From NCBI GenBank assembly GCA_021731145.1, contig JAKFXX010000005.1, forward strand, positions 18,821 to 82,820: a stretch of 64,000 nucleotides of DNA. The letters are read 5' to 3'. Source of the DNA: Gammaproteobacteria bacterium. Its GTDB lineage: Bacteria; Pseudomonadota; Gammaproteobacteria; Ga0077554; Ga007554. Position numbers and translations under genes: made by a program. Under the pieces are notes generated by a model. It was not told where the DNA came from. It saw nothing but the letters and a program-made list of their open reading frames with translations, and searched no databases. This document shows positions 11,241 to 50,387 of the stretch, piece after piece (positions within the stretch are counted from its first letter, which is position 1; each line of letters starts with the position of its first letter).

Positions 11241-12939
11241 CGCTGGCCACCCAACCTTTAACAACTTGCGCAACACGCTTCGGATCTTGCCCTACCAGCG
11301 TTCTGGCAGCATCAAGCTGCGACTCATAATTTTGCGAGGGTGAGGATGCAGGCGCGGCAAGTTGTGCAGCGCCTTGTGCTGTTGAGCTCGAACCAGGCAG
11401 GCTAATGCGATCCTCCATCATGCCTGGTAATTCCTCCATGTGTGCCGTAGCGTATTGCGAAGCAACGCGTGAAGATTCCTTGCCCTTTTCCGCAAGACTA
11501 CGCAGCACCGGGCGCAGCACGCCGAATATCAGGAACAATACCGCCAAACCACCCAGCGCCTGTTTCGCCACATCCCAAATCCACGGCTGCTCCAGCAACT
11601 TGGGCTCCGGTATGGGCGTTTCCGCCGCCACTGTAAACGGGGCATTAATCACATTCACACTGTCACCGCGTTGCGTGCTGAAACCCACCGCTTCCTTGAC
11701 CAGCGAGGTGATGCGCGCAAGCTCTTCAGGCTTCAGCGCGGTACGCACCACTTCGCCTTTTTTATTCACTTTCTGGTGGTCATCGACAACCACAGCCACC
11801 GATAATTTACGCACCGAGCCACTCGGCATTTGGGTATGACTGATGACTTTGTCCAGCTCGAAATTGCGCGTCGCACGTTTGGTGCTGTTGAGCGGCGTCT
11901 GCGCGGCAGGCACCGTATTTGCGGCAGGCACGGCACCCTTGGCATTCGGCGCGGCAGGGCTGGGAGTGGACACTGTCCCTCCCGCCGGTGGTTGATTGGT
12001 CAATGCTCCCGGCACACCTGCCACTGCGGCGGCTCCCGCCGACTGCTCATCCAGCGTCTGCTCGCTGCGTATCGCCGGTTGATCGGGATTGTATGTTTCC
12101 TGTGTCTGCTCAGTGACACTGAAGTCCAGATCTGCCACTACCTGTGCCCGAACACCGCCAACGCCGGCAATGGGCGAAATGATGTCTTCGATGCGCTTGA
12201 TGTAGTTTTCCTCAAGCCGGCGCCGGTAATCGAACTGGCTGGCAGTGAGCTGCATGCTTTTAGATGTTTCCGGTGAAGTCAGCAGACGGCCCTTCTGGTC
12301 GATAACTGTCACATGCTCTGCATTCAGGTTGGGAACACTGGAGGCTAGCAAATGCACTATCGACGCGACCTGCCCTTCTTCAAGATTGCGCCCTGGATAG
12401 AGGTTGATCAGCACCGAGGCGCTGGGTGGTTCGCGGTTGCGAATAAACACCGACTGCTTGGGGATGGCCAAATGCACACGCGCTCCCTGCACATTGCCCA
12501 ATTCGGAAATCGTGCGCCCCAGCTCGCCCTCCAACGCATGCTGGTAGCGCGCGTTTTCCATGAACTGGCTGGTCCCGAAGGTGGGCTGATCGTTGAGCAA
12601 GGCAAAGCCTTCCACCGTCCCTTTGGGCAGCCCCTGCGAAGCCATCTTGAGGCGAGCTGTATGCACCTGATCGGCGGGCACCATCACAGCGCCGCTGTTT
12701 TCATCGACCTTGTAGACAATGCCATCCTTCTGCAAGGCATCGGCGATCTGGGTTGCGTCCTGCGCGGCAAGACCACTGTACAAGACGCGATAATTCGGCG
12801 CCTGAGACCACAAAACAACGGCTACGCCCAGCGCCACGCTGGCCGCCAGGCCAATCATCAATCCCATTTGGCGCAGCGCTGGCAGACCGCTAAAGCCGCG
12901 CATCTGGGCTGTCATGTTTTCTGCTTTTATTAGCGCCAT
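11233..12939 (-). CDS. fliF: flagellar MS-ring protein FliF
   Basis: 568 aa. N-terminal TM segment, FliF/YscJ region, proline/alanine-rich linker, C-terminal TM segment. Confidence 0.9.
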   Translation of the reverse strand: MALIKAENMTAQMRGFSGLPALRQMGLMIGLAASVALGVAVVLWSQAPNYRVLYSGLAAQDATQIADALQKDGIVYKVDENSGAVMVPADQVHTARLKMASQGLPKGTVEGFALLNDQPTFGTSQFMENARYQHALEGELGRTISELGNVQGARVHLAIPKQSVFIRNREPPSASVLINLYPGRNLEEGQVASIVHLLASSVPNLNAEHVTVIDQKGRLLTSPETSKSMQLTASQFDYRRRLEENYIKRIEDIISPIAGVGGVRAQVVADLDFSVTEQTQETYNPDQPAIRSEQTLDEQSAGAAAVAGVPGALTNQPPAGGTVSTPSPAAPNAKGAVPAANTVPAAQTPLNSTKRATRNFELDKVISHTQMPSGSVRKLSVAVVVDDHQKVNKKGEVVRTALKPEELARITSLVKEAVGFSTQRGDSVNVINAPFTVAAETPIPEPKLLEQPWIWDVAKQALGGLAVLFLIFGVLRPVLRSLAEKGKESSRVASQYATAHMEELPGMMEDRISLPGSSSTAQGAAQLAAPASSPSQNYESQLDAARTLVGQDPKRVAQVVKGWVASDA

Positions 12940-12997
12940 TTTTAAGTGTCTAGTTCTGAGTTTCGTGTTCGAGACGGGAGCTGTAGTGCCTTAATTA

Positions 12998-13324
12998 TTA
13001 AATCGGCATGCTCATGACTTCTTGATAGGCCGACACCAGCTTGTTGCGCACCTGCGTCATGGCCTGAAAGGAAAGACTCGACTTCTGTAATGCCACCATC
13101 ACTTCGGTAAGCTCGACCTTGGAGTCGCCCGCTTCAAAGGCCTGCGCCAAATTTCCGGCTTGCTGCTGTACATCGTTGACTTTCTCAATGGCGCTTTTAA
13201 ACAGGCTGGAAAAATCCGTGTTAGCCGCAGCATCTGTTTCCGTGACGGACGGCTTTGCCTGCGCCTGCGCAGCCATGGCGCGCATTTGCGCCAGTAATTG
13301 GGTTGTGTCTATGGTGTTGCTCAT
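12998..13324 (-). CDS. fliE: flagellar hook-basal body protein FliE
   Basis: 108 aa, FliE family (..FSSLFKSAIEKVNDVQQQA...). Confidence 0.85.
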   Translation of the reverse strand: MSNTIDTTQLLAQMRAMAAQAQAKPSVTETDAAANTDFSSLFKSAIEKVNDVQQQAGNLAQAFEAGDSKVELTEVMVALQKSSLSFQAMTQVRNKLVSAYQEVMSMPI

Positions 13325-13407: not shown

Positions 13408-14760
13408 TTAGTCAGGTATCGCCACGCCTGATTCGCGCAGTCGCGCCAATTTGTAACGCAATGTGCGCGGGCTAATGCCAAGCCGTTCTGCAACCTCCTT
13501 GCGATTGCCCCTTGCCGTATGTAATGCCTCGATAATCAGTTGTTGCTCATGGGACTTAAGGTCGTCATCGAGGCATGCTTCTTCACCTGGGGCTTCCTGG
13601 CTCGACGAGGTAAGCGGCGCGATACGTGGCGAGTCTGTTTCGAAGTGCAAATCGGCCGGATTAATTATTGCGCCCGATTTCATGATCAAGGCGCGCTGGA
13701 TCACGTTATCCAGCTCACGCACGTTGCCAGGCCAGGCATGCGCCCGCAGACGCTGCGCCGCTTCATCAGACAACACAGGCAAGGGAAACGCACCATGGCT
13801 ATGGCGCTCGATGAGGCGTCGCGCGATGGGAAGGATGTCTTCCTTGCGTTCGCGCAACGCGGGCAGAGGCAATGGAAACACATTCAAACGATAGAACAGA
13901 TCCTCACGGAAACGCCCAGCAGCGACTTCCGCACGCAGATTGCGGTTGGATGTCGCCAGTACGCGCACATTCAGCGGGATCATCTTCTGTGCGCCAAGAC
14001 GCTCCACCTCGCGCTCCTGCACTACACGCAACAATTTGGCCTGTAGCGCCAGACTCATCTCGGAGATTTCATCGAGTAATAATGTTCCATTTTGCGCTTG
14101 CTCGAATTTACCCGGCGCGGCATGGTACGCACCGGTGAATGCGCCTTTTTCATAGCCAAACAACACCGCTTCCAGCATGTTCTCTGGTATCGCCGCGCAG
14201 TTGATAGCGACAAACGGGCCTGACGCGCGATGGGAATGGCGGTGAATAAAACGGGCGAAAACCTCCTTTCCTGTGCCGCTTTCCCCGGTTATCAATACAG
14301 TGGCATCACTTCCCGCCACACGCTGCGCGAGCTCTGCCGCCTCGCGCGTGCGCGCGTCCACCGCTACCAGATCGGCGTCTTCTGTATCAGCGCCTGGTGA
14401 CGAGATATAGCGGCTTACCATCGAAATCAGCACTTCGGCTTCAAATGGCTTGACCATGTAATCCGCGGCGCCCTCGTGCATAGATTCGACTGCCTTGGGA
14501 ATCGATCCATGGGCAGTCATTAAAACCACCGGCATATCCGCGCGCCGGGCCTTGATGCGTTTGAGCAAGGTATGGCCATCCATGGGGCGCATCTGCACAT
14601 CGCTCAATACCATGCCCACTTCGCCCGACTCCAACCGGGCCAGTGCGGCCTGCCCGTCTTCCGCAACAATAACGCGATACCCCGCCAATTCCAGCGTATC
14701 GCACAGCGCCTCGCGTAACGCCGCATCGTCTTCTACAACCAGCACAGTCGCTGAACTCAT
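13408..14760 (-). CDS. fleR: sigma54-dependent response regulator FleR/FlrC (receiver + AAA+ + HTH)
   Basis: Receiver domain (VLVVEDDAALREAL...VLSDVQMRPMDG), sigma54-interaction domain ([12 protein letters not shown]... GAFTGA), C-terminal Fis-type HTH. Confidence 0.85.
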   Translation of the reverse strand: MSSATVLVVEDDAALREALCDTLELAGYRVIVAEDGQAALARLESGEVGMVLSDVQMRPMDGHTLLKRIKARRADMPVVLMTAHGSIPKAVESMHEGAADYMVKPFEAEVLISMVSRYISSPGADTEDADLVAVDARTREAAELAQRVAGSDATVLITGESGTGKEVFARFIHRHSHRASGPFVAINCAAIPENMLEAVLFGYEKGAFTGAYHAAPGKFEQAQNGTLLLDEISEMSLALQAKLLRVVQEREVERLGAQKMIPLNVRVLATSNRNLRAEVAAGRFREDLFYRLNVFPLPLPALRERKEDILPIARRLIERHSHGAFPLPVLSDEAAQRLRAHAWPGNVRELDNVIQRALIMKSGAIINPADLHFETDSPRIAPLTSSSQEAPGEEACLDDDLKSHEQQLIIEALHTARGNRKEVAERLGISPRTLRYKLARLRESGVAIPD

Positions 14761-15941
14761 GTGATACCTCGTTCTTCTTTTATGACGGGTAGCCGCAACG
14801 TAAACGTGCAGCCTGATCCAGGCTGCGTATCCAGCCAGATCTCACCACGGTGCCCTTCCATCACTGCTCGCACCACCGCCAACCCCAGCCCCGTACCGGA
14901 GGACTTGGTAGTAAAAAAGGGCTCAAAAATGCGATCCCGGATTTCCTCGGCGATGCCAGGGCCGTTGTCGCTCAACTGTAAATACACCACCTCATCGCCA
15001 TCACTCACCGCCATCAGGCGCAATTCGACGCCGGTACCGCAAGCCTGTATGGCGTTGGTAGCAAGGTTCAATAGCGCGCCTAGCAATGCTTCACGATTAC
15101 CGCGCATCATCACACCGGATGCCCCGTCCATCACGTCCAGGTGTCCTGTGCAGGCCTGCAACTGAGGCTCCAGCATTTGGCGGAATTCGCTTATCAAATC
15201 TGACAGCGCAATATCATCCCCGCTCACGCCTCCACCGCGCACAAACATCAGCATGTCATTCACCATCTTTTCGATGAGGCGCAGGCTGGCAAGACTTTTT
15301 TCGGAAAAACGGCGGATATCAACGCCATCAAGATTGGCGCGGGAGAAGTGAGAGGTATAAAGCAATTCGGAAGACAAAGGTGTGCGGATCTGATGGGCCA
15401 GGGAGGCGGCCATCTCGCCCATCGCGGACAATCGTTGGTGACGGCTGAGATTTTCCTGCAGGGCGCGCGTTTCGGTGAGGTCGGTAATGAGCAGAATCTG
15501 GCCTGGCTCATCACCCAGCGAACTGGTGGAGATGCCGACGCGCCGGCCATCGCGCAACGACACTTCATGGCCGTCATCGGAACGCGGCGCGAAGGCACGT
15601 CTGATCACTTCACGCCACACCATGCCTTGCAGGGGCTCCCCCAGCAATTCCAGCGCAGCGGGGTTGCACTCCTGAACGCATCCGCCGCCATCCAGTACCA
15701 CTACCCCACCGGGCAAGGCATTCAGCAAGCGCGTAAGACGATTTGCCAGACGTTCTTTTTCGGCGGCAGCACTGGTCTGCTCAAGACGCGCGGCAGCAAG
15801 ATCCGCATTGAGCTGATCAACACGTTTTTCAAGAATCTGATAGGAGGCGGCGAGCTGCTGCGAAAGCTGATTGAAGGTATGAAAAGCGCCCGCCAGGTTC
15901 TGAGGCGAATCCTGATTTTGTTGCGCGCCTTGTAGAGCCAT
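14757..15941 (-). CDS. fleS: flagellar sensor histidine kinase FleS/FlrB
   Basis: PAS region, HisKA (SAMGEMAASLAHQIRTPLSS), HATPase_c (GTGLGLAVV). ATGA-type overlap with fleR. Confidence 0.8.
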   Translation of the reverse strand: MALQGAQQNQDSPQNLAGAFHTFNQLSQQLAASYQILEKRVDQLNADLAAARLEQTSAAAEKERLANRLTRLLNALPGGVVVLDGGGCVQECNPAALELLGEPLQGMVWREVIRRAFAPRSDDGHEVSLRDGRRVGISTSSLGDEPGQILLITDLTETRALQENLSRHQRLSAMGEMAASLAHQIRTPLSSELLYTSHFSRANLDGVDIRRFSEKSLASLRLIEKMVNDMLMFVRGGGVSGDDIALSDLISEFRQMLEPQLQACTGHLDVMDGASGVMMRGNREALLGALLNLATNAIQACGTGVELRLMAVSDGDEVVYLQLSDNGPGIAEEIRDRIFEPFFTTKSSGTGLGLAVVRAVMEGHRGEIWLDTQPGSGCTFTLRLPVIKEERGIT

Positions 15942-16087
15942 GCCGATTCTTGCTCCCGCCGTTCTGAGAAACCATGAGTACGGGGACTACCCCCTTTGCA
16001 CAGAGGGGGTGAGCAAGAATCGCGCCTAACCTACAAAATAATAAAAATCATTGTGTTATATATGTCTCAACAAAAAAACAGTCAAAA

Positions 16088-17515
16088 TTACGGCGCGTCG
16101 TCACCGCGATGCAAGCCATATTTACGCAGCTTTTCAACCAGGGTGGTACGACGCAGCTTGAGCCGTTCGGCGGCGTGAGCCACCACCCCACCCGCATCGT
16201 CCAGCGCCTGGCGGATCAGATCATACTCCAGGGTATTGAGATGCTCTTTGAGATCCAGACCTTCGCGCGGCAGGCGCGGCGGCACTTCAAAGGGGCGCGG
16301 AAGCGCTTCTTCCGGCAATACAAGATGGGGCGGCAGCGTGGCGCCGGCAGCTCCTCCCCGGAATTTTTCCGGAAAGTCCTGCACATCCACGACGCCATGC
16401 GGGTGCATGATCACCAGGCGCTCTATGAAATTGGCAAGCTCGCGCACATTGCCCGGCCAGCGATAATGGCACAATGCGATCACCGCCGCAGGCGTGAGCC
16501 GGACCGAACCGCGGTTTTCGTGTTCAAGACGGGTAATCAGCTCATTTATCAGCAGCGGAGTATCCTCAAGACGCTCGCGCAGCGGGGGCATTTCTATCGG
16601 AAAGACATTAAGGCGGTAATACAGATCCTCGCGGAACTTGCCCTCCTTGATAGCCTCCTCAAGGTTACGGTGCGTGGCGGCAATGATCCGCACATTGGCG
16701 GAAATGGTTTTATTGCTGCCGACCCGCTCAAAGGTGCGTTCCTGAAGCACGCGCAACAGTTTGACCTGCATGTGCAGGCTCATGTCGCCAATCTCGTCGA
16801 GAAACAGCGTGCCGCCTTCGGCCATTTCAAAACGCCCCTGCCGGGCACTGATGGCCCCGGTAAATGCGCCCTTCTCATGGCCAAACAGCTCGCTTTCCAG
16901 CAGTTCGGCAGGGATTGCACCGCAATTGATGGGGACGAAAGGCTTGTTACGGCGGGTGGAATAATAATGCAGGTTACGCGCAACCACCTCTTTGCCCGTG
17001 CCTGATTCACCCAGGATCAATACAGTGGCATCAGAACTGGCCACCTGCTCAATCAATTTGCGAACCTGGCGAATCACCGGGCTGTTGCCCACCAGGCTGC
17101 GGAACAACTCCAGCGAGCGATCCACAGGCTTTTGCCGTGGGGATTCGCGGGATGCCTGCGCCTGTTGCAGCAGTGCCGTCAATTGCCGCTGCTTCGGCGG
17201 CGTATCGACATAACCAAATACGCCCGCCTTTATCTCTTCGGGAGATGGCGCTTCTTCCCTGGCGTCGCTCAACAGCAGGATAGGCATTTGCGGATCCCAC
17301 GTCTTGATAGCATTAAATACCTTTATTAATGCTTCTTCAGAACCACAGTTGCCAAGCAAAACCGCAAGAACGGCATCGGCCGGCGGCAGCCCTTCCCGCC
17401 AGGTCTCGCCGCTGGCCAAATGCACCGGCCCATATTCTATAAACTCAAGTATGGCCTTGAGATTCAGACGCCTTTGCTCATCCGCATCAACAATCAATAC
17501 ACCGGATGACGACAT
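16088..17515 (-). CDS. fleQ: sigma54-dependent master flagellar regulator FleQ/FlrA
   Basis: Atypical receiver-like N-terminal domain followed by an AAA+ sigma54 activator domain ([18 protein letters not shown]... GAFTGA) and a C-terminal HTH. Confidence 0.85.
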
Positions 17516-42503: not shown

Positions 42504-42579
<76 letters not shown>

Positions 42580-42619: not shown

Positions 42620-42696
42620 GCCCCGGTAGCTCAGCTGGATAGAGCATCCCCCTCCTAAGGGGAAGGTCACACGTTCAAATCGTGTTCGGGGCACCA
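42620..42696 (+). tRNA. tRNA-Arg (anticodon CCU); its 3' half is the integration site of the downstream element
   Basis: 77 nt with cloverleaf and encoded CCA. Anticodon loop ctCCTaa. The 3' 45 nt (plus 4 nt beyond) are repeated at 49879-49927. Confidence 0.85.
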
Positions 42697-42700
42697 ATAA
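42652..42700 (+). repeat. attL: 49-nt direct repeat (tRNA-Arg 3' end)
   Basis: ctcctaaggggaaggtcacacgttcaaatcgtgttcggggcaccaataa, compared with the 49879-49927 copy: 45/49 identical, with mismatches compensatory in the T-stem. Confidence 0.8.
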
Positions 42701-42753
42701 AATCAATAAGTTAATAACTTGTGCCCGGTGCGAATTTTTTCATTTTCGTAAAA

Positions 42754-42783
42754 TGTAACCAGTTTGTAACCGCATTTGTTCAC
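42754..42783 (+). promoter_or_regulatory. putative integrase arm-type sites (TGTAACC x2 + TGTTCAC) next to attL
   Basis: Sequence aaaTGTAACCagtTTGTAACCgcatTTGTTCACtgg. A matching TTGTAACC x2 lies just upstream of int at ~49719-49736. Confidence 0.35.
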
Positions 42784-42825
42784 TGGCGCGGCCTCTCGCA
42801 TTTCGAGTGTGCGCGGAACGCCGGA

Positions 42826-43104
42826 TCAATGCTGCTCATCGCCATGCCGCCTGATGACGAATTTGAACTCGCTGGGGGTATCATCTTCCCCGACGATGGT
42901 TTGGATCGGGGTCGGCTTGCCGTCCAACCGGTCGGCAATCTCCCTGATCGCGGCCAGGTCGCCCTCTCCGGCCCGCATGACCAAGGCACGGGCGATGCGC
43001 TCCAGAGCGCCCTTGTCACGCGCCAAGACCTTATGCAGGGCGTCGCGGAACATTGAGCCTTTCTTCGCGTTGCTATTGCCCTTTTGCCCGCCTTTCCTAA
43101 CCAT
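42826..43104 (-). CDS. hypothetical phage-associated protein (92 aa)
   Basis: Basic N-terminus (GGQKGNSNAKKG) then ALHKVLARDKGALERIARALVMRAGEGDLAAIREIADRLDGKP. Resembles small conserved phage proteins of unknown function. Confidence 0.35.
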   Translation of the reverse strand: MVRKGGQKGNSNAKKGSMFRDALHKVLARDKGALERIARALVMRAGEGDLAAIREIADRLDGKPTPIQTIVGEDDTPSEFKFVIRRHGDEQH

Positions 43105-43149
43105 TCGATTCGAATCCCATCACCTTGTTCCGGTTGATGATTATAGCAC

Positions 43150-43632
43150 TCAAGCGCCGGGCAGTTCCGCCGCCGCCCGCCCGGTGAAGTAGTCCCGCGC
43201 ATCCGCATCTTGCTGGCACTGGCCCAACACGTCGTCGATGATCTCTTGATCGGCCTCACCGATATGTGCCAGCCATGCCCGGATTGCTTGATCTTCGTCG
43301 GCGGTCATGGCGTCGGTCGGTTGCCGCCGGATCGGCTCGAAGGGTTCAGCCGCTACCGCGTCCGGGTGCCAGGCCAGAATGTCGGCATGGGTCGCCTCGG
43401 GGCAGCAGGTCAGTTCCACAGGGTCGCGCTCTGGGTAATGAATCAGCCAGCAGCGGGAAGCGGTCGCCGTATCGCCAGCGCCGACATTCACCACGTCATT
43501 GATTATTTGTGACGTAACAGCCGTAACAGGCGTACAAGCCTGTACTGGTGCAGGTTCCGGTGTTACGTCATCCAATGTGGCAGGCGTAACAGCCCGGCCT
43601 TTCAACCTCACCAGCAGCGCATCAAGCCCCAT
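43150..43632 (-). CDS. hypothetical protein (161 aa) downstream of the primase; the track ORF 43150-44031 is trimmed
   Basis: Start set at MGLDALLVRLKG. The upstream 133 codons of the track ORF overlap the primase gene in another frame and are R/S/C-rich. Contains the V-T-P repeats that come from the iteron cluster. Confidence 0.4.
   Translation of the reverse strand: MGLDALLVRLKGRAVTPATLDDVTPEPAPVQACTPVTAVTSQIINDVVNVGAGDTATASRCWLIHYPERDPVELTCCPEATHADILAWHPDAVAAEPFEPIRRQPTDAMTADEDQAIRAWLAHIGEADQEIIDDVLGQCQQDADARDYFTGRAAAELPGA
43511..43591. repeat. iteron cluster 1: about five TGTTACG/CGTAACA heptamers at the 3' end of the primase gene
   Basis: Sequence gacgtaaca gccgtaaca ggcgtacaa ... gtgttacgtc ... 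ggcgtaaca. Confidence 0.45.
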
Positions 43633-46165
43633 GGTCGCCACCCAGCTTGTCAGCAATGATCTGGTACAACCGCACCAGGCGCCCACCAATGCGTTGCGCT
43701 TTGGCACGTTCGCCGCTGGTTGCTGGTAGCGCGCCGACTTCCTGCAAGATATCCAGCGCCCGCTTGAAGTCGAAGCCCTTGACGGCCTCGCGCAGCCCTT
43801 CGGCGTTGAACAGATAGACGCGCGCGAGGCCGTCATCACGCCACCAGCCTGCCCGATTGATACGCATGGCGTCCGCTGTCTCGTAGGCATCGGCACTGGA
43901 GAATCGGCTATCCCCATGAAGCGAAATAAACCCGGCAACCTGCTCCAATATCTGCCGCCGCTCATCGTTACCGCGTCCGCGTGTGGATCGCCACGCCTTA
44001 AAGCCCACCACTGCCGCTTCGATTGCCGCACCCTCCGGCCAGCCGGTTATGCCGTATTCAGTCGCCACCTCACCCGCCAGCGCCACCAAGGCGAAACGTG
44101 CCGCCCCTCGTTTGTCCTGCCCCTCGCCACCTTCGGCGGATAACTCCGGCAATGACTTGATCAGCTCCAGACGTTCGGCAAAGTTGCGTTTATCGCGGGT
44201 CAGCTTTTCGAGGAATGCCCGCCCAGCGTGTCCGTGGTTCGTTGCCGCTGCTTTCTTGATCGCATCGGAAAACGCCGCACCATCCTTGAAACCGTGCAAG
44301 TTATCCAGTACGCCAAAGCCCCGCACCGCCGGAATATCCAGCAGCCGCACCGACTGCCCAGCCTTAGCCCGGTGTCCTGCTTCTGCCATCGTGGTTGCTA
44401 TTGTGCGCTCGCCATTCGACAAGACAGCACAGCGCCAGCGGGTCACTGCCCGCGCATTGCCGGTGCGGCTTGCCCTCTGTTTGCCAGTGCCATTGCCCAG
44501 TGCGTAGACGATAGTACCTATTTCCTTGGGTTCGGCTTCGCTGGTGTCATCCAAGGCCAGCAGGCAATCACTGAACAGTGCCGCCACGCCCTCCATGCCG
44601 TTTGCTGTTGCTCGCCAGCTTCGGCGGAAATTCGGCCCGCCCCAGGTTGAACAGCCTGCGTCGGCTATCGTACTCTTGCCGATAGACGACTCACCGACAA
44701 AGTGAAGTCCGCCGCTCTCGGCGTTGCATAGCTTGAGCATTGGCCCCGCGAATGATACCGACATACCCAGTACCATCATGGGATTGCCAACAGCCCGTGC
44801 CGCTATATTAGCCTGCCACCCGGCCAACGTGCCGCCCTTGGTGTGTTCGTCATGTCCGCGCTCGCCACTCTGGAAGATCACGTCCGAAGCCTTCGGCCCG
44901 ATTACCGCATCCGGCAGCACAAACGAATCACCGCACCATCCCACTTGCAGCGCACAACGAATACGCCGTTTCGGTGGTATGGCTTGCAGGTAATGCCCCA
45001 GCAATGTCCGCCCGGCGTGTGGGTCAATCTCTACACCCATCGCCAGCAGCTCGCCGCGCAGTTCATCGCCCGCACCGCGCAAAAGTTCCATCGGCATAGC
45101 CCATTCGCGCCACTTGCCGACGGTGGTTTTAAATCGCAGCAGCCGCCCAAAATTATTATCCTGTCCGTCAAAAGTCACAGCCTCAACATGCACGGGTGAG
45201 CATACCCATTGTTGAGTAAGCGCGGGTGGTTCTTCACCTTTGCCGTGCTTGACCGTGAAAGACCATACCCCCGGTTTCAACTCGGCACCACCGGGCAGCT
45301 TCTGCCAATCGTCAAACACTTTGAAGCATGGCCGTTTGCTTTCGTCGGGGATAATTGGCTCAGGTGTTACGCCTGTTACGCCATCCGTTTCATCAGACGT
45401 AACAACAGAAAGCCCGCCGTTATTGGGCTGTACGTCTGTTACGCCTGTTACGTCATTTTTTATCAATGCCGCATCGTGTACCGGTGTTGCCGTGTCCACC
45501 ACGTCCGGGCTTGCGGCGTTTTCTTCGTCGGCTTGATGCTCTGACCTTGCCGATGTTTGCGCGGCCTGTAGAGCTTCTACGGTCGGCAGTGCGGCTATAT
45601 CCGCCATCGTTGCGCCGGGGTTCGCCTTCAACCAGTCCACAGCGTCGCCCTTGGAAGGAAGGTTCAAGGCATCCACGTCGATGATGCGCACCGTGCAGCC
45701 CATTGCCAACAGGATGGAAGCCACCGCATCGGCATAACGCCGCCCGGCGCCATCATTGTCCGGCCAGATCGTCACGGTTCGCCCGGCCATGATTGACCAG
45801 TCGGCTTTTTCTGCCGAATCCGCCGCGCCGCTGGTGGTGGCCAGCGCTCCGGCCTTCGGCAGCGCATCGGCGCACCATTCGCCTTCTACTACGATCACCG
45901 TATCATCGGGCCGGGTTGCCAGATCATGCAGGCGGTACAGCGGCTTGCCGTCTGGGTATTCCGGTTCGCCCAGTGTGTAACCTGCACCATTCAGCTTCAT
46001 GGGACGAATCCATTTTTCACCAGTGGTGGGATGTTTCAGGCGGATGCGCCAGTGCAGCGTGGTGCCGTCGCGGTCGGTGTATTCGTGCAGGGCTTGTGGC
46101 TTGCAACCTTTACTGATCGCTCCATCCGCCAGACGCCGCGCGGCTTGTTGGGGTGTCTCACTCAT
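43622..46165 (-). CDS. primase-helicase (Toprim domain + P4-family/D5-type C-terminal NTPase), alpha-like replication protein
   Basis: Toprim motifs IVVEGEWCADAL and IWPDNDGAGRRYA. C-terminal Walker A GESSIGKSTIA. Start set at MSETPQQAARRL, an ATGA overlap with the upstream zinc-finger ORF. Track ORF extends to 46267. Confidence 0.8.
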   Translation of the reverse strand: MSETPQQAARRLADGAISKGCKPQALHEYTDRDGTTLHWRIRLKHPTTGEKWIRPMKLNGAGYTLGEPEYPDGKPLYRLHDLATRPDDTVIVVEGEWCADALPKAGALATTSGAADSAEKADWSIMAGRTVTIWPDNDGAGRRYADAVASILLAMGCTVRIIDVDALNLPSKGDAVDWLKANPGATMADIAALPTVEALQAAQTSARSEHQADEENAASPDVVDTATPVHDAALIKNDVTGVTDVQPNNGGLSVVTSDETDGVTGVTPEPIIPDESKRPCFKVFDDWQKLPGGAELKPGVWSFTVKHGKGEEPPALTQQWVCSPVHVEAVTFDGQDNNFGRLLRFKTTVGKWREWAMPMELLRGAGDELRGELLAMGVEIDPHAGRTLLGHYLQAIPPKRRIRCALQVGWCGDSFVLPDAVIGPKASDVIFQSGERGHDEHTKGGTLAGWQANIAARAVGNPMMVLGMSVSFAGPMLKLCNAESGGLHFVGESSIGKSTIADAGCSTWGGPNFRRSWRATANGMEGVAALFSDCLLALDDTSEAEPKEIGTIVYALGNGTGKQRASRTGNARAVTRWRCAVLSNGERTIATTMAEAGHRAKAGQSVRLLDIPAVRGFGVLDNLHGFKDGAAFSDAIKKAAATNHGHAGRAFLEKLTRDKRNFAERLELIKSLPELSAEGGEGQDKRGAARFALVALAGEVATEYGITGWPEGAAIEAAVVGFKAWRSTRGRGNDERRQILEQVAGFISLHGDSRFSSADAYETADAMRINRAGWWRDDGLARVYLFNAEGLREAVKGFDFKRALDILQEVGALPATSGERAKAQRIGGRLVRLYQIIADKLGGDHGA
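45363..45455. repeat. iteron cluster 2: about six TGTTACG(C/T)C heptamers inside the primase coding region
   Basis: Sequence ggtgttacgc ctgttacgc ... gacgtaaca ... ctgtacgtc tgttacgc ctgttacgtc. Translated as ...GVTPVTP...DVTT...TSVTPVTS... in the primase. Confidence 0.5.
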
Positions 46166-46479
46166 GGTGTGACCTCCCACGCTCCCAACGCCTTGGCGGC
46201 GCCGATGAAACGCAGCCCATGACGCAGCATGTGAAATGCCAGCACATCGCCCCCATGCGCACCGCATACCATGCAGCGAAAACCGCCGGTGTCCAGTCGA
46301 ACGCGCAGGCTGGGTTGGGTGTCGTTATGAAAGGGACAAAGAGCATTTCTCCATTCGCCGCCGCCGATCAGCTTCAAGCCCTGTTCGTGGTAATACTCGG
46401 CGGGGATGGGCAGAAGGTTGCGCTTGAATCCAAAGGGTTTGCGGGTGTGTTGTCCCCGCGTGGGGTTCGCGTAGCTCAT
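46162..46479 (-). CDS. CHC2-type zinc-finger domain of DNA primase, encoded as a separate ORF
   Basis: CPFHNDTQPSLRVRLDTGGFRCMVCGAHGGDVLAF is a zf-CHC2 motif. Its stop overlaps the start of the Toprim-helicase ORF as ATGA. Confidence 0.6.
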   Translation of the reverse strand: MSYANPTRGQHTRKPFGFKRNLLPIPAEYYHEQGLKLIGGGEWRNALCPFHNDTQPSLRVRLDTGGFRCMVCGAHGGDVLAFHMLRHGLRFIGAAKALGAWEVTP

Positions 46480-46491
46480 GGTGGCGCCCCC

Positions 46492-46707
46492 TTATTGAGA
46501 TTGAGACAGCAGCGCACGGATTTCAGCAACAGGCCAAGCCAGACGGCCATTTATGCGAATGGGGCGGATGGGGCCATTCTCAAGGCACGCATATGCACGC
46601 ATTGTTTGTGGTTTGCGTAGCAGATGGAAAGCGGCGCACGCAGTTTCCACGTGGCTGCGCGTTTCCATTTCAATCGGTGGGAAAGTGTGAACGGTTGCGG
46701 TTAGCAT
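46492..46707 (-). CDS. alpA: AlpA-family phage transcriptional regulator / excisionase-like protein
   Basis: Start set at MLTATVHTF. C-terminal region PIRPIRINGRLAWPVAEIRALL resembles the AlpA HTH (..GRAVAWRESEV..W.). Confidence 0.55.
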   Translation of the reverse strand: MLTATVHTFPPIEMETRSHVETACAAFHLLRKPQTMRAYACLENGPIRPIRINGRLAWPVAEIRALLSQSQ

Positions 46708-46827
46708 TTTGTAATCCTCGTTTATGTTGATGAGGATTACTACTTTAACCATGCGTTAAAAGTTTTAAAGAGACTGATTAGGCTTGGCTGAAACCCGCGC
46801 CGCTATTGGGCTATAGGGTGGTTTTGT

Positions 46828-46862
46828 GTTAAAACTTTCGCTGAAAGTATGAAAGTTTTAAC
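46828..46862. promoter_or_regulatory. 12-bp perfect inverted repeat (GTTAAAACTTTC-N11-GAAAGTTTTAAC) over the stop codon of ORF 46858-47445, with a third half-site ~70 nt away
   Basis: Arms gttaaaactttc / gaaagttttaac. A further aaaagttttaaag lies at ~46750 in the alpA promoter region. Not followed by a T-tract, so more likely an operator than a terminator. Confidence 0.35.
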
Positions 46863-47445
46863 TCAGAACTACGTTGGCAAACGCTTTCAATATCGTTTCA
46901 CTACCAAAGTTTTTTCTATTGCCACGCTTTTTAACGCCAGCATTACTTAGCGACTGGACAACTTTATCAGCCAATATATTCCGCTTCGTAAGCAAGGTTG
47001 TATCGTCCCTGATAAGTTGACGCGCAAAGTGACGGGCCGGGGTGTACCAAGGTTGTTCTGGCGCGGGGTCGTTGGGGTCTACGATTTCCCATGGTTTCGG
47101 TGCTACGGCCTGTATCACTGGCACGGCTTCAACCTTCCCGGTAGTGGATTTGGTGACGGTTGAAAGAGTGTTGCCTGGGTGGACATCAGTGCCCGCCGTG
47201 ACTCCATGCAATTCGCATAATTCTCGTGAAATGAAATAGCCATTTTTGATAGCCCATTCAATCGCAGTACCCGCCGGGAACCATAGACCCAATTCATCCT
47301 GTATCACCAGCTCAAGGGTTCTCCCATCTGAGACTTCATTACCTGAGCCACTGATAACTGTTAGCAGTGTCGTTGGCCTCCATATTGTCTCTTGGCCAAG
47401 CCACAGTGAAGCGGATTTTAGAGCTGTAATCATATTCACATCCAT
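46858..47445 (-). CDS. hypothetical protein (195 aa), no recognisable domain; sits between the TA pair and alpA in the satellite hotspot position
   Basis: MDVNMITALKSASLWLGQETIWRP...GYFISRELCELHGVTAGTDVHPGNT...PEQPWYTPARHFARQLIRDDTTLLTKRNILADKVV... No signal peptide. Confidence 0.5.
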   Translation of the reverse strand: MDVNMITALKSASLWLGQETIWRPTTLLTVISGSGNEVSDGRTLELVIQDELGLWFPAGTAIEWAIKNGYFISRELCELHGVTAGTDVHPGNTLSTVTKSTTGKVEAVPVIQAVAPKPWEIVDPNDPAPEQPWYTPARHFARQLIRDDTTLLTKRNILADKVVQSLSNAGVKKRGNRKNFGSETILKAFANVVLS

Positions 47446-47501
47446 TTAAAATAGAGACCCCATTACGCCAGTGAGGGCGTCCGGCGTTTCCCCCGCCCAA
47501 G

Positions 47502-47954
47502 TCAGGCGGCCATCCGCCACCCCTTGGCGGTTTCCTGGAATATTTGCTTGGCCCCTTCTTCCAGTTTTTCCAGGCGGTCTATGTCGTTCCATTGGGCAAT
47601 CATTTTCGCCACCTTGGTTTCGCCGTCCGCATGTTCCAGGTAAAGCAGGCGCAGCATCCTTTCGGCGGCCACTGTTGGGCGGCGTTTGCTTCGTTCCCAT
47701 AGGGAAATGGTTTGCTCGTCAACGCCCAGGCAGTCGGCCAGTCGTTTTTGCGACATGCCCATTTCTACCCGAAGAAAGCGGATTTCCGCGCCAGACAATC
47801 GCTCGCGGTAATTTACCAAATGGTGCGCGATGGAACGATGCAGCCCGTTTATGTCGTCTATCTCCAGGCACTTGCCATGCCCTTCGATTTCCTCATATTG
47901 GTAGCCATTTTTCAGCCAGATATTCCGCAGCCCACAGTCGTCATATTTCAGCAT
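47502..47954 (-). CDS. MqsA/HigA-2-like antitoxin (degenerate N-terminal zinc-finger region + XRE-family HTH)
   Basis: HTH region GMSQKRLADCLGVDEQTISLWERSKRRPTVAAERMLRLL. Only two of the usual four Cys are present in the N-terminal domain. Follows the toxin after a 4-nt gap. Confidence 0.6.
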   Translation of the reverse strand: MLKYDDCGLRNIWLKNGYQYEEIEGHGKCLEIDDINGLHRSIAHHLVNYRERLSGAEIRFLRVEMGMSQKRLADCLGVDEQTISLWERSKRRPTVAAERMLRLLYLEHADGETKVAKMIAQWNDIDRLEKLEEGAKQIFQETAKGWRMAA

Positions 47955-47958
47955 TTCT

Positions 47959-48282
47959 TCATTCCTCGAATACCGTTGCGATGATTACCCATTCGCCATT
48001 TTCATGCAGCTTGAATACCGCTCCCACAGTAACGCGCAGCCCCGCATGTTGCCAACGGATGTTACAGCGCCAATCCGCTTTAATATCCTGGTGAAGCGGC
48101 TCGCTGATGGTTCCATGCTCCAAGGTTTCCAACACCTGTCTACGCCCAATTTTACGTTGGCGCATTCGCAGTTCGGCATGTGCGGAAAAGAGCAGGCGCC
48201 GTTTTCCCTGGGCAGCCTCCTTGAGCCATTGTTTAGCCAGTTTTTCGCTTGGCTTGTAGGGCTTAATGTTTTTCATTAACAT
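47959..48282 (-). CDS. DUF4258-like small toxin (107 aa)
   Basis: SAHAELRMRQRKIGRRQVLETLEHG...WRCNIRWQHAGLRVTVGAVFKLHENGEWVIIATVFEE matches the DUF4258 toxin pattern. It is upstream of the HTH antitoxin, the toxin-first order seen in mqsRA. Confidence 0.5.
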   Translation of the reverse strand: MLMKNIKPYKPSEKLAKQWLKEAAQGKRRLLFSAHAELRMRQRKIGRRQVLETLEHGTISEPLHQDIKADWRCNIRWQHAGLRVTVGAVFKLHENGEWVIIATVFEE

Positions 48283-48318
48283 ACATTGTATGGGTATATC
48301 GGGAAGATTTCAAGGGTA

Positions 48319-49704
48319 TTATTTTGTCACCACCCGCAACCCTGCTTGCACTGGCACAAACCCGATTCCGGCCTGCTCCAATATCCACGCTTCAATCTTG
48401 ACGTGCCACAGGTGCAGCAAGTCGAGTTCACGCTGTATGTAGTGCTTTTCTGCAATGGCGCTTGGCTTGTGCCCCATGATTTGCGCAACGATTCCAGTGG
48501 GGACTTCCACCCACTCAGACAAGGTGCCAAAGGAACGGCGCAAACCATGCAGGGACAGCGCGGGAAGTGCAGCAGCATTCAATGCCTTGACGTGTTGAAT
48601 GCGCGGTTCCTCTATCCTTCCCGATGCGGCGGTGGGGCTTGAGAATACATATTCATTGCGGCGCGGCAGTGCGGATATTAAATGCTCCAGGTAGGGTGTC
48701 AGCGGAATGGTGCGCTCGCCTTCCACTTTGTCGCGGATGGTTAAACTTTTCCACTGAAAGCCAACATCGCACCAACACAGCGTGGCCAGTTCGTTGCGGC
48801 GTGCGCCTGTCAATAACAGGCCTTGCAGATAGGCAGCAATTACCGGGTTCCCAATCTTTCGCACCGCTTCAAACCATGGCTTGATTTGCGCACGTCTCAG
48901 GCTGTCATTTTTCTTGATTTGTGGTGAAGGAACCTTCTTTCTCACGTCATCAGACTGGCACGCATCAGCGTGAACGGCGGCGCGGTAGCTGTCTTGCTTG
49001 GCGCACCATGTAAGGAAGGCACGCAAAAAGCGGAAGGCTTTGGCGGCAGAGGTCGGGGCTTGTTTGATTTCCTTGGCTAACCATGCCGCAATGGCCTTTG
49101 CGTCCAAGTCAATTAGGCGCATTGTCATCAGTGGCACCAACATGCCGGGGCGTGTTTTTTTAGATTCGCCGGGGCGGCTTCCACGTTTGCGCTTTACCCC
49201 ACCGGCTTGAACAAAATAAGCGTGGTGCGCTTTATGTCTTTCGCCCCATTCAGGCTTACCGTCAACGATAGAGGCGCTACGCTCTGCAATATAGGCTTGC
49301 CATGCTTCGGCCACGGTCACGGATTCGCGCGCCTCCTGCACCACCAGCGCGGCGGCTTGCGCCTCCTTGGCTAACTTCGCAGCTTTCTTGCTGGCTTCAT
49401 TCTCTGCTACCACTTGGCGCGGGTCATTGCCTTGGTCTATCAAGACTTGAAGGCGGCGGGCTTCGGTTTGGGCGGCATCAATACTCCATGCCTTCACCTT
49501 GCCAATCGTAACGCGCATTGTTTGCCCGTTTACCTTGGCTTGGAAAATGTAACGCTTGCGGGCCAGTGGGTCGCTATCTTTCGCGCCACCTGTCGCACGC
49601 ACCCCCAGCCCCGGCACTTCGGCACACCATAGGAAGGCTTGGGATTTACCTTCATCGCACTTAAAGCCTGCAATCCGTCCGGCTGTTAGTTTGACCTTTG
49701 CCAT
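48319..49704 (-). CDS. int: P4-type tyrosine integrase
   Basis: 461 aa. N-terminal DUF4102-like arm-binding region. Catalytic region ends HGLRRSFGT...GHKPSAIAEKHYIQ (R...HxxR...Y). Adjacent to attR. Confidence 0.85.
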   Translation of the reverse strand: MAKVKLTAGRIAGFKCDEGKSQAFLWCAEVPGLGVRATGGAKDSDPLARKRYIFQAKVNGQTMRVTIGKVKAWSIDAAQTEARRLQVLIDQGNDPRQVVAENEASKKAAKLAKEAQAAALVVQEARESVTVAEAWQAYIAERSASIVDGKPEWGERHKAHHAYFVQAGGVKRKRGSRPGESKKTRPGMLVPLMTMRLIDLDAKAIAAWLAKEIKQAPTSAAKAFRFLRAFLTWCAKQDSYRAAVHADACQSDDVRKKVPSPQIKKNDSLRRAQIKPWFEAVRKIGNPVIAAYLQGLLLTGARRNELATLCWCDVGFQWKSLTIRDKVEGERTIPLTPYLEHLISALPRRNEYVFSSPTAASGRIEEPRIQHVKALNAAALPALSLHGLRRSFGTLSEWVEVPTGIVAQIMGHKPSAIAEKHYIQRELDLLHLWHVKIEAWILEQAGIGFVPVQAGLRVVTK

Positions 49705-49878
49705 GATGCGCCCTTTTTTGTAACCAATTTGTAACCACGTTTTCAGTATATCGCGGCATACCTATCAACACAACAAACAAGGGTATTTTTAATAACTAAT
49801 TGTTTTAATTGGAAACATGATTTTTGCGGAATGGCAATCAACGGTAAAGTATGCTTATTTTTTAAGCATTTTCACGCA

Positions 49879-49927
49879 CTCCTAAGGGGAAGGTCGTACG
49901 TTCAAATCGTATCCGGGGCACCAATAA
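49879..49927 (+). repeat. attR: 49-nt direct repeat of the tRNA-Arg 3' end; overlaps the last 8 codons and stop of the hydrogenase protease gene
   Basis: ctcctaaggggaaggtcgtacgttcaaatcgtatccggggcaccaataa. Positions 49902-49927 encode ...IIGAPDTI* on the minus strand. Confidence 0.8.
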
Positions 49928-50387
49928 TCGGCAAAAGTTCTTCTTTGATCCGCTCCACCAACATGGGCAACGCCCCGGCAGTTTCGGGCGTTAAAGTGTC
50001 GCATGGCTCAAGGTTGCACGCCTCCACGCCGTAGAGCACCAGTCTCGCTGGCAGCATCCCCAGCGTTCCACCCAGCGCCAGGCTTTCGGCCACACCAAAA
50101 CCATGGCTGGAGAGCAACGCCGCCTCCATCTCGATCTCTTCATCCTGCAAGCGGCGGATTGTGCCGGGCACGGCGCCGCTGCGCATGGCATCAATGAGAA
50201 TGACGTGGGCGGCGCCCTCCATGAGCATGAGCAATCCGCTGGCCGGCCGGTCACAGGTTTGCACACTCACCAGACCTTGCGGAAAACGCCCCAGCAACCC
50301 CGATCCGCGGATAGCCTCGACCGCCTCCCAACCAAGCTGATCGTCACCGAAGGGCGAACCGATGCCGATGATGCGGATCGGCGTCAT
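49902..50387 (-). CDS. NiFe-hydrogenase maturation endopeptidase (HoxW/HycI/HybD family)
   Basis: 161 aa. IRIIGIGSPFGDDQLGWEA...VILIDAM is the hydrogenase protease signature. ATGA-type overlap with the large-subunit gene. Confidence 0.8.
   Translation of the reverse strand: MTPIRIIGIGSPFGDDQLGWEAVEAIRGSGLLGRFPQGLVSVQTCDRPASGLLMLMEGAAHVILIDAMRSGAVPGTIRRLQDEEIEMEAALLSSHGFGVAESLALGGTLGMLPARLVLYGVEACNLEPCDTLTPETAGALPMLVERIKEELLPIIGAPDTI

Follow-up and report, generated by a model that had tools for sequence, protein, structure and literature searches.

A 7.2 kb integrative element in a gammaproteobacterial tRNA-Arg(CCU) gene, a candidate minimalist phage satellite with a DUF5681-family gene

Introduction

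Among the described systems closest to the locus studied here are three classes of phage satellite, namely the P4-like elements, the phage-inducible chromosomal islands (PICIs), with the Staphylococcus aureus pathogenicity islands (SaPIs), and the phage-inducible chromosomal minimalist islands, called PICMIs. The locus itself is a 7.2 kb element in a tRNA-Arg(CCU) gene of an uncultured gammaproteobacterium, and it lies within a stretch of 64,000 nt (positions 18,821 to 82,820 of contig JAKFXX010000005.1, assembly GCA_021731145.1) that we call the window, in which all coordinates without another label are counted.

In the SatelliteFinder models a PICI has an integrase, an alpA or other regulator gene, a primase-replicase, a capsid morphogenesis gene and the small terminase gene terS, and the P4-like variants that have been reported lack at most two core components (PMC10085698). 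What defines PICMIs is AlpA (PF05930/PF12728), together with a primase of the DUF3987/DUF5906 type and a site beside fis; for them an integrase, alpA and a primase can suffice for a satellite, and packaging as multimers has been shown (PMC10803314). We took the class criteria used below from these two papers. Outside these classes, the small element phiAH14b was reported to be induced with a helper and packaged in helper capsids, having its own primase and no recognisable terminase (PMC4936722).

The original prediction for this locus, made from the letters of the sequence, had read it as a compact P4-like satellite with a replication module and without structural genes. To judge from its sequence features, it is almost certainly an integrative element with its own replication module in the 3' end of tRNA-Arg(CCU), and it is probably a minimalist, helper-dependent phage satellite, related to P4 in design and not in sequence.

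Results

The element is inserted in the 3' end of tRNA-Arg(CCU)

The element is bracketed by a direct repeat of the tRNA-Arg 3' end (the attL and attR cores of Table 1), whose two copies are identical at 45 of 49 positions according to the repeat finder. When both strands of the window were searched, the next best match to the 49-mer had 22 mismatches (mean 36.7, sd 2.95), which places the repeat far beyond chance. The 3' 45 nt of the tRNA-Arg gene as it now stands are the copy supplied by the element. The four differences between attL and attR fall at tRNA positions 50, 51, 65 and 67, and pairing is kept at all of them: the T-stem pair 51:65 goes from C-G to T-A, pair 50:66 from A-T to G.T, and the acceptor pair 7:67 from G.T to G-C. 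Both the present gene and its 5' part joined to the attR copy fold as tRNA-Arg(CCT), so that the tRNA is restored although its 3' end is duplicated at both borders, as in tRNA islands. The original prediction had placed the repeat at these same positions, where it stands; it had also called the mismatches in the T-stem compensatory, a description that is right as far as pairing goes and strictly true of 51:65 only.

A relative without the element shows which copy is the native one. An att-core query in which the four variable positions were kept degenerate, run over public metagenomes, gave a contig (L060) that is 94% identical to the window over the end of ycgR, tRNA-Ala and tRNA-Arg. The 3' half of its intact tRNA-Arg is of the attR type (51/51 identical to window 49879-49929), and the attL core departs from this native allele at four positions, which means that attR is the displaced native end and that the attL copy was brought by the element. 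Over the 830 nt past the tRNA this contig has no element gene; there is non-coding sequence and a convergent nitroreductase-like open reading frame (ORF), and the unoccupied tRNA-Arg has another downstream neighbour than that of the window. Short assemblies of SRR10388250 and SRR10388252 contain the identical element as well (99.6-99.97% identity).

The integrase has a tyrosine recombinase domain (PF00589, 2.5e-10) behind an N-terminal arm-binding domain (PF13356, 7.1e-7), both over the Pfam cut-offs, and it matches phrog_1 at 1.6e-31. The putative arm-type repeat TGTAACCNNNNTGTAACC occurs exactly twice in the 64 kb (at 42754 and 49719) against 0 occurrences expected, once 54 nt inside attL and once 15 nt upstream of the int start codon. 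Analogous doublets are found at both ends of a related element of Thiobacillus denitrificans (TGTTCCCA) and in a sibling element described below (GGGGTAAC). The duplication of the att core, the native allele in a relative, the arm doublets at both ends and the conserved iteron origin together give strong support to an integrative element in tRNA-Arg with a replication module, as originally proposed. Several parts of that proposal can be retained as they were: the P4-type architecture of the integrase, the arm-type repeats, the iteron clusters, the position of all genes on one strand, and the flagellar and hydrogenase genes on either side.

The replication module has a mirrored pair of iteron clusters

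All nine ORFs between the repeats lie on the minus strand, and they are intact and tightly packed. The replication module consists of a CHC2 zinc-finger gene and a long rep gene with Toprim and DUF927 domains, and since the rep start overlaps the CHC2 stop in ATGA the two genes are translationally coupled. The helicase part of rep matches the SaPI "pathogenicity island protein" of PDB entry 8TCH at 5e-16, the helicase Cch (5DGK) of the staphylococcal cassette chromosome mec (SCCmec) at 5e-10 and NCBIfam Cch1 at 2e-16. By these matches the helicase is of the SaPI-Rep/SCCmec-Cch-like (DUF927) type and not of the P4 alpha type, which leaves in place the split CHC2 and Toprim genes of the original prediction and replaces its P4 helicase.

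The motif GTTACGYC was expected 2.3 times in the whole window, and eight of its nine sites fall into clusters A and B, which together form an inverted repeat (I1) of 76 nt with 72% complementarity. Read in the orientation of the rep strand, the spacing of cluster A, 23-40-9, represents four of the five sites of the 9-23-40-9 arrangement that relatives carry after the rep stop codon. Specifically, the elements of a Thiobacillaceae metagenome-assembled genome (MAG; L040) and of T. denitrificans ATCC 25259 (L042), whose Rep proteins are 67% and 66% identical to that of the window, have an internal 9-40-23-9 cluster and a mirror-image 9-23-40-9 cluster after the stop, at the same position and with the same separation of ~1.85 kb, and their iteron hexamer is GGTATC where that of the window is GTTACG. 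Repeats that adjoin rep, keep their position and geometry and change in sequence are what one would expect of a functional, co-evolving initiator-origin pair, and we take the clusters to be a probable iteron origin.

The ORF that follows rep begins inside it, overlapping the rep stop by 11-14 nt in four elements (the window, L040 at 12558-13085, L042 at 8838-9167 and L053 at 4980-5426). Its N-termini are homologous and conserved (MGLDALL, MGLEALL, MALADLL and MALDALL); V/D-T-P repeats then run through the iterons, and the C-termini are unrelated between elements. The 160-aa product of the window has no match in Pfam, PHROGs, PADLOC, NCBIfam or phage genomes. The two iteron clusters are both coding: the one in the rep linker and the one in the post-rep ORF are each read as V/D-T-P/G repeats.

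Relatives of the replicase are found in satellites

Of 8,000 candidates that were scored, 1,473 are related to the replicase at E <= 1e-20. In L040 the gene order is int, a HigB-like toxin gene, a helix-turn-helix (HTH) gene, a 283-aa gene, an uncalled winged-helix-like ORF, CHC2 (72% identical to that of the window), Toprim-DUF927, a 175-aa gene and a 103-aa gene. This element lies downstream of tRNA-Ser, with a 16-nt copy of the tRNA 3' end just outside int, and its topology is that of the window, int being the gene farthest from the tRNA. It has ~3 kb of extra cargo (13803-16346; a Trypsin_2/TPR protein and two ORFs without assignment) on the stretch from the small tail ORFs to tRNA-Ser, so cargo insertion seems possible at the tRNA-proximal end too. 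The T. denitrificans element is a minimal version of ~5.9 kb, with int, AlpA, an 80-aa gene, Toprim, DUF927 and a 109-aa gene. Both share the architecture of the element in the window.

The best Rep matches in the phage genome database are two tiny "phages", vB_Pae_U10 (10.2 kb, 38% identity) and phiAH14b (16.8 kb, 37% identity), and SaPIpT1028 is among the matches. The circular 11.2 kb Pseudomonas aeruginosa record pHS87b, whose Rep match is identical to that of vB_Pae_U10, carries int, HTH, Toprim and DUF927 genes together with an ogr/Delta-like gene and a P2-family capsid gene. The records of pHS87b (NZ_KR106191.1) and vB_Pae_U10 (PP003922.1) look like one ~10-11 kb P. aeruginosa element that was deposited once as a plasmid and once as a phage.

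A further relative is an Escherichia coli island (L062) with int, AlpA, an Icd-like gene, DUF5375, TOPRIM-DUF927, a polarity-suppression protein, ogr/Delta and a retron, which is a P4-like satellite with a TOPRIM-DUF927 replicase in place of alpha. The island (NZ_CP128951.1, 459475-470894) has Psu-family and ogr/Delta-like genes and holds retron St85 at the cargo position; the 655 kb "plasmid" record in which it lies has chromosomal genes such as lptG and is possibly a mis-assigned fragment of a chromosome. That the closest database relatives of the replicase are in phiAH14b, pHS87b/vB_Pae_U10, an E. coli P4-like island and SaPIs strengthens the case for a satellite.

The last gene belongs to a family found directly upstream of terL

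The gene nearest to attL encodes a 92-aa protein. It has a weak direct match to DUF5681; its homologues gave a profile that covers 6,494 clusters, and DUF5681 was matched by 70 of the 126 relatives that were sampled. The AlphaFold2 model of the protein has a three-helix core and is confident only at residues ~20-60. In the phage genome database the protein matches three uncultured podovirus genomes (MW202674.1, MW202691.1 and MW202647.1); in all three the next gene downstream of the homologue encodes a Terminase_3 large subunit, with an overlap in two, and a P22-like portal gene then follows in two of the three.

The IMG/VR database holds at least 536 relatives of the protein, and we analysed the neighbourhood of the 80 best loci (L063-L142), asking for a downstream ORF of at least 150 aa on the same strand and within 500 nt and scoring domains at E <= 1e-5. 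Such an ORF was present at 72 of the 80 loci, in most cases overlapping by 3-79 nt and 413-500 aa long; 46 of the 72 matched Terminase_3 and nine matched Terminase_6N. By gene order, the DUF5681 family thus occupies the small-terminase slot in phages, suggesting that it is a small terminase family that has gone unrecognised. Because the family stands directly upstream of the large terminase gene (terL) in viral contigs, we label the 92-aa gene a candidate small terminase, a packaging role that is read purely from gene position and neighbourhood. The original prediction had stated that the element has no capsid, tail or terminase genes, and indeed no capsid, portal, tail, lysis or large-terminase domain was found in any ORF with Pfam or PHROGs; the statement needs to be amended for this one ORF, which belongs to a family of the small-terminase slot. 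That the element carries a homologue of a phage family located directly upstream of terL is a second point that strengthens the satellite reading.

Close homologues of the 92-aa protein are also encoded directly after the replicase gene in integrase-bearing elements with two other types of replicase, one Prim-Pol/DUF3631 (next to tRNA-Met, in Bradyrhizobium) and one Prim-Pol/PriCT with D5_N/DUF5906. In addition, a sibling element (L048, positions 1-1250 of a contig of SRR10388250) shares a tail module with the element of the window at 85-92% nucleotide identity. This module comprises the C-terminal part of the post-rep ORF (92%) and the 92-aa gene, and in the sibling it is combined with other iterons (TAGCAA/GCGAC-type, after its rep) and with another, truncated integrase, which points to a recent exchange of the tail module between element backbones. 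We had considered this contig as a possible attP junction and ruled that out, given that its integrase is different and truncated and that the contig is a sibling element and not a circle.

Recent modular exchange of this kind speaks against another idea, in which a larger satellite or prophage has decayed here to an immobile remnant that is kept for its toxin-antitoxin or defence cargo. The absence of capsid, tail and lysis genes, the four differences between the 49-nt att repeats and the lack of an excised form in our scans could all be read in that way. However, all nine ORFs are intact and tightly packed, the att cores, arm doublets and iteron clusters are each intact as pairs, relatives in other bacterial classes are equally compact, and the four att differences separate an element-borne from a native allele that is found 51/51 in a relative and are not a sign of decay. 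A remnant is therefore improbable.

A helper-dependent satellite or an integrated plasmid

Several observations weigh against a helper-dependent satellite, and we gather them here. No helper phage was identified. The exact empty site, with tRNA-Arg abutting hycI, was not found in the scans of genome collections and metagenomes, and the metagenome scan with the degenerate att core returned neither an attP junction nor an excised form; the search for an empty site with the att core, which the original prediction had recommended, yielded the intact native allele of L060 and no tRNA-Arg next to hycI. The 92-aa protein has no likeness in sequence or fold to any characterised small terminase: it has no PHROG match and no PDB profile match, its best fold match in BFVD has an E of 1.3, none of the small terminase (TerS) profiles match it, and a TerS PHROG is touched by only one of its 126 relatives. 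In L040 and L042, the two nearest relatives by architecture, a DUF5681 gene is lacking, which makes this gene accessory to the replicon family. The small regulator at the AlpA position matches no AlpA model, with no Pfam hit (PF05930) at E <= 5 and none in NCBIfam. Finally, the same type of replicase is also present on the plain plasmid pTAO100 (6.4 kb, no integrase) and beside endolysin-like/lysis genes in the viral contig L054, from which it follows that the replicase is typical of satellites and not exclusive to them, and does not by itself define one.

Some of this evidence would suit an integrated plasmid or episome, that is, an integrative replicative element independent of phages that would excise, use its iteron origin to replicate and spread by transformation, vesicles or conjugative mobilisation, and in which the DUF5681 protein would be a DNA-binding regulator or a replication accessory. 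Replicases of this type run small circular plasmids, pTAO100 being an example, and 53 of the 57 plasmid records with this rep are typed as non-mobilisable. DUF5681-like genes directly follow three types of replicase, so a replication-linked role is equally possible, and the missing match of the 92-aa protein to known small terminases goes in the same direction. By contrast, no ORF has a relaxase, mobilisation, oriT-associated or coupling-protein domain (Pfam, NCBIfam and PHROGs), the relaxase or mobilisation protein of an integrative mobilisable element being among the domains that were looked for; the systematic adjacency of DUF5681 and terL is hard to square with a role in replication; and the nearest characterised relatives of the replicon are satellites. 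We consider a phage-independent plasmid rather unlikely.

A satellite, and not a prophage, was also what the original prediction had argued for. That view remains plausible, and the relatives of rep and the terL-linked family of the 92-aa protein have made it stronger.

The element falls outside the described satellite classes

For the comparison with P4 we used the annotated P4 record and searched the nine proteins of the element against all 14 P4 proteins with BLASTP. None showed detectable similarity (best E = 0.16); specifically, rep against alpha gave nothing at E <= 1, Sid, Delta and Psu were matched by none of the nine, and the best value for epsilon, E = 0.62, is not meaningful. No ORF has a Psu, Sid, Delta, epsilon or ogr domain in Pfam, PHROGs or NCBIfam, and the Rfam scan returned two tRNAs only and no P4-type immunity RNA. 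Of the P4-like genes, then, psu, delta, sid, epsilon, an alpha homologue and alpA are all missing, and at most three of the seven core components of the SatelliteFinder model are possibly present, whereas reported variants lack at most two (PMC10085698).

What the element shares with P4 is a tyrosine integrase with an arm-binding domain, a tRNA 3' end as its target, a variable cargo slot beside int and, as layout only, the order rep, iterons, att and int, to which come arm-type doublets on either side of the core and a further iteron set some way off. In the P4 record the crr iterons follow alpha, attP and int come next, and the other iterons, those of ori, are 4.7 kb distant. Such a doubling (ori plus crr) is a feature of P4 that is not known from SaPIs, and the element has its second, mirrored cluster inside rep. 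Some P4-like islands, among them islands of E. coli, also have the same type of TOPRIM-DUF927 replicase in place of alpha. Together with the layout, this is what speaks for a true P4-family satellite exploiting a P2-like helper through Sid, Psu, Delta and epsilon; yet the element has none of these four, nor cI RNA or cos, and its helicase is DUF927 and not alpha. With the BLASTP and domain scans membership in the P4 family is ruled out, such a satellite is hardly credible here, and the family label given in the original prediction has to be dropped, the similarity being one of layout.

The likeness to PICIs and SaPIs lies in the order int, accessory slot, small regulator and primase-replicase, with an iteron origin directly 3' of rep, in a Rep helicase homologous to 8TCH, in a candidate small-terminase-like gene at the distal end and in the absence of tail and lysis genes. 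The integrase and the primase-replicase of the PICI model are present, and of its forbidden components (tail, holin, portal and connectors) none was found. The differences are its size (7.2 kb, where the median for PICIs is 9.5 kb; PMC10085698), the lack of a capsid morphogenesis gene (no such domain in any ORF), a regulator without an AlpA profile match, and a DUF5681 small terminase candidate that the TerS profiles do not recognise.

PICMIs resemble the element in their minimal set of ~6-7 kb, in a core of int, small regulator and primase, in having no capsid-remodelling genes, and in concatemer packaging as the likely answer to a mismatch in size with the helper capsid. None of the defining PICMI features is found in the element, however, which has an unclassified winged HTH protein in place of AlpA, CHC2 and Toprim-DUF927 as its primase, and a tRNA-Arg site between ycgR and hycI where PICMIs have fis. 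PICMIs, moreover, have no terS-like gene, and the element has a candidate.

The elements phiAH14b and pHS87b/vB_Pae_U10 share the backbone of int, AlpA/HTH, Toprim and DUF927 helicase, the helicase at 37-38% over ~580 residues, and they differ in their size of 10-17 kb, in having separate Toprim and helicase genes, and in lacking CHC2 and a DUF5681 gene. In addition they carry genes related to the helper: phiAH14b has one for a tail assembly protein, and pHS87b has the ogr/Delta and P2-family capsid genes. SCCmec elements with Cch/CCPol have a homologous DUF927 helicase and are likewise integrative with a helicase of their own, but they use serine recombinases (Ccr) and the orfX/rlmH site, live in Gram-positive hosts, and have neither a Toprim-CHC2 primase nor a tRNA target.

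Membership in the P4-like, PICI and PICMI classes thus fails in each case on at least one defining feature. In its workings the element would come closest to a pared-down PICI or PICMI whose origin, att and int are arranged in the style of P4.

Regulation, cargo and the surroundings of the insertion

The remaining features of the element and its site are listed with the others in Table 1. The regulator is a 71-aa protein from a family of 2,451 proteins, of which the 120 listed are 60-92% identical and have no Pfam domain. Its AlphaFold2 model has the topology b-a-a-b-b-a (pLDDT, the model's own confidence score, 76). In a Foldseek search against the PDB no match was significant (best E 0.7); the best size-normalised matches were the small excisionases RdfS, Pukovnik Xis and GIsul2 Xis, and BldC, with TM scores of 0.5-0.64. 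In the equivalent slot the T. denitrificans element has an AlpA that Pfam recognises. The AlpA regulator named in the original prediction is ruled out as an assignment by sequence, given the blanks in Pfam and NCBIfam and a fold search without significance, and the label is only compatible with the position of the gene and its modelled fold.

The 12-bp palindrome lies in the gap before the 71-aa gene and the replication operon, with a third half-site nearer the start of the 71-aa gene. Its hairpin has z = -3.35 and no U-tract, which makes it operator-like rather than a terminator. A promoter-like site was seen at 48313-48285 (10/12), in a promoter and terminator scan that did no better than shuffled background.

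Between int and the regulator the element carries a DUF4258 gene and an HTH_3 gene that are 4 nt apart, the layout of a putative type II toxin-antitoxin pair. The HTH protein matches phrog_5119 at 6e-34 and, under the cut-off, the NCBIfam MqsA family at 2e-13. This pair had not been mentioned in the original prediction. In L040 the same slot holds the HigB-like toxin and HTH pair, and judging from the elements compared the slot behaves as a swappable cargo site, filled by DUF4258/HTH, by HigB/HTH or by nothing. PADLOC found no known defence system. The 195-aa protein has no match in Pfam, PHROGs, PADLOC, NCBIfam or phage genomes.

Table 1 Features of the element and its integration site in the window
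Feature	Position	Strand	Basis or remark
tRNA-Ala(CGC)	42504-42579	+	ARAGORN; precedes tRNA-Arg
tRNA-Arg(CCU), integration target	42620-42696	+	ARAGORN; Rfam tRNA 64.8 bits; fold check
attL core, element-derived tRNA 3' end (45 nt) and 4 flanking nt	42652-42700	+	Repeat finder, fold check
Arm-type doublet TGTAACC-N4-TGTAACC, putative integrase arm site (P' arm)	42754-42771	+	Part of 24-nt repeat D9
92-aa DUF5681-family protein, candidate small-terminase-like packaging specificity factor	42826-43104	-	Weak direct DUF5681 hit
Post-rep ORF, 160 aa, overlaps rep stop codon	43150-43632	-	Conserved N-terminus, variable C-terminus
Iteron cluster A (GTTACGYC-type), proposed origin or crr-like site	43511-43594		Directly 3' of rep stop codon
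Toprim and DUF927 primase/initiator-helicase (rep), 847 aa	43622-46165	-	Pfam DUF927 3.5e-99
Iteron cluster B, inside rep, in the Toprim-DUF927 linker, inverted mirror of A	45366-45456		Spacing 9-40-23-9
CHC2 zinc-finger protein, 105 aa, split-off primase zinc-binding domain	46162-46479	-	Pfam Zn_ribbon_DnaG 1.1e-11
71-aa winged-helix-like protein in AlpA/Xis position, candidate excisionase/activator	46492-46707	-	AlphaFold2 model
Perfect 12-bp palindrome GTTAAAACTTTC/GAAAGTTTTAAC, operator-like	Within 46818-46872		Inverted repeat I4
195-aa protein, no assignment	46858-47445	-	Called as gene in metagenome contig L001
HTH_3 protein, 150 aa, MqsA/HigA-like, putative antitoxin/repressor	47502-47954	-	Pfam HTH_3 1.8e-8
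DUF4258 protein, 107 aa, putative toxin partner	47959-48282	-	Pfam DUF4258 2.8e-8
Tyrosine integrase int, 461 aa, P4-type architecture	48319-49704	-	Arm-DNA-bind_3 and Phage_integrase
Arm-type doublet TGTAACC-N4-TGTAACC (P arm)	49719-49736	+	Pattern count
attR core, displaced native tRNA-Arg 3' end, abuts/overlaps hycI 3' end	49879-49927	+	Repeat; relative L060

The element is flanked on one side by flgA, flgM, flgN, ycgR and the two tRNAs and on the other by a HycI-type protease gene and a NiFe hydrogenase operon. Scanning with the hydrogenase, we obtained the three closest genomes, which are uncultured Gammaproteobacteria MAGs (L003-L005) with ~90% DNA identity. Their alignment to the window begins only at 49929-49932, no more than five bases from where attR ends. 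After hycI they lack a tRNA, and beyond it they differ from one another. Position 49929 is therefore a general synteny breakpoint and not a clean empty site. Exact-protein look-ups gave no record for hycI or for the NCBI copy of rep, and a contig obtained with ycgR stopped short of the tRNA.

Compared with L003, L004 and L005, the flagellar cluster with the tRNAs adjoins the hydrogenase operon only in the genome of the window, and the junction of tRNA-Arg and island coincides with a breakpoint of chromosomal rearrangement, other genes and no tRNA following the hydrogenase operon in these closest MAGs. The hycI frame (49902-50387, minus strand) enters attR, and its last ~8 codons and stop are the antisense of the tRNA 3' end (49902-49927). 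In three ~90%-identical relatives the ends of hycI diverge right after a common ...KEELL, continuing as LLPEG and a stop codon, LLMAGCAAQKKL and a stop codon, or LFPTSMAV... up to the stop.

A third variant of the att core (GGTCGGACG...CGTCTCC) was seen on a metagenome contig (L059, Ga0208244_100661, 2359-2407), without the 5' half of a tRNA. It is followed by sequence like the left end of the element, with an IS3-family transposase ~400 nt away, and could represent the remains of an att site or a piece of an island that is decayed or in tandem.

Discussion

The favoured reading, a minimalist satellite that depends on a helper, implies a life cycle. Integration has duplicated the tRNA 3' end, with the element copy completing the tRNA and the native copy displaced by 7.2 kb. 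The palindrome upstream of the replication operon may be the operator that keeps the operon off until a signal comes, probably from a helper phage that infects or is induced. Excision of the element as a circle would be the work of the integrase and the 71-aa winged-helix protein, and Rep would bind the iterons, melt the origin and prime replication. In the manner of the TerS of SaPIs and PICIs, the 92-aa DUF5681 protein may act as a mimic that directs the large terminase of the helper to package element DNA in helper capsids, probably as multimers because 7.2 kb is far under the capacity of a capsid. The DUF4258/HTH pair may be exchangeable cargo that serves stabilisation or defence.

The individual modules are familiar; what goes beyond the original prediction is the association of DUF5681 with terL, together with the recruitment of this gene by small elements, and an iteron geometry that is conserved to the base. 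Small integrase elements that are based on three or more unrelated types of replicase, among them Toprim-DUF927, Prim-Pol/DUF3631 and Prim-Pol with D5_N/DUF5906, may have acquired this tail gene independently of one another. As for the replicon, its repeats describe what seems to be a mirrored bipartite iteron origin embedded in coding sequence. Since the iteron geometry is kept to the base while the sequence changes, these elements offer a natural series of specificity swaps for the recognition of origins by SaPI-Rep/Cch-like initiators.

A wider claim can be made only tentatively, and we hold it to be doubtful: that the element stands for a class of minimalist satellites that is undescribed and widespread among Beta- and Gammaproteobacteria of the environment, and in which the sole gene for helper exploitation would encode a DUF5681 mimic of a small terminase, capturing Terminase_3-type large terminases from podovirus-like helpers. 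If so, this would be the first functional assignment for DUF5681, as a small terminase. In any case the adjacency of DUF5681 and terL provides a concrete hypothesis for a domain of unknown function, and it suggests how a 7 kb element without structural genes might direct its own packaging. Because the element fails the P4-like, PICI and PICMI models, current satellite finders would miss it. The replicase family has more than 1,400 relatives and the family of the small regulator more than 2,400, mostly on short environmental contigs, and if these relatives are satellites they would constitute a large uncounted reservoir of phage parasites in uncultured proteobacteria.

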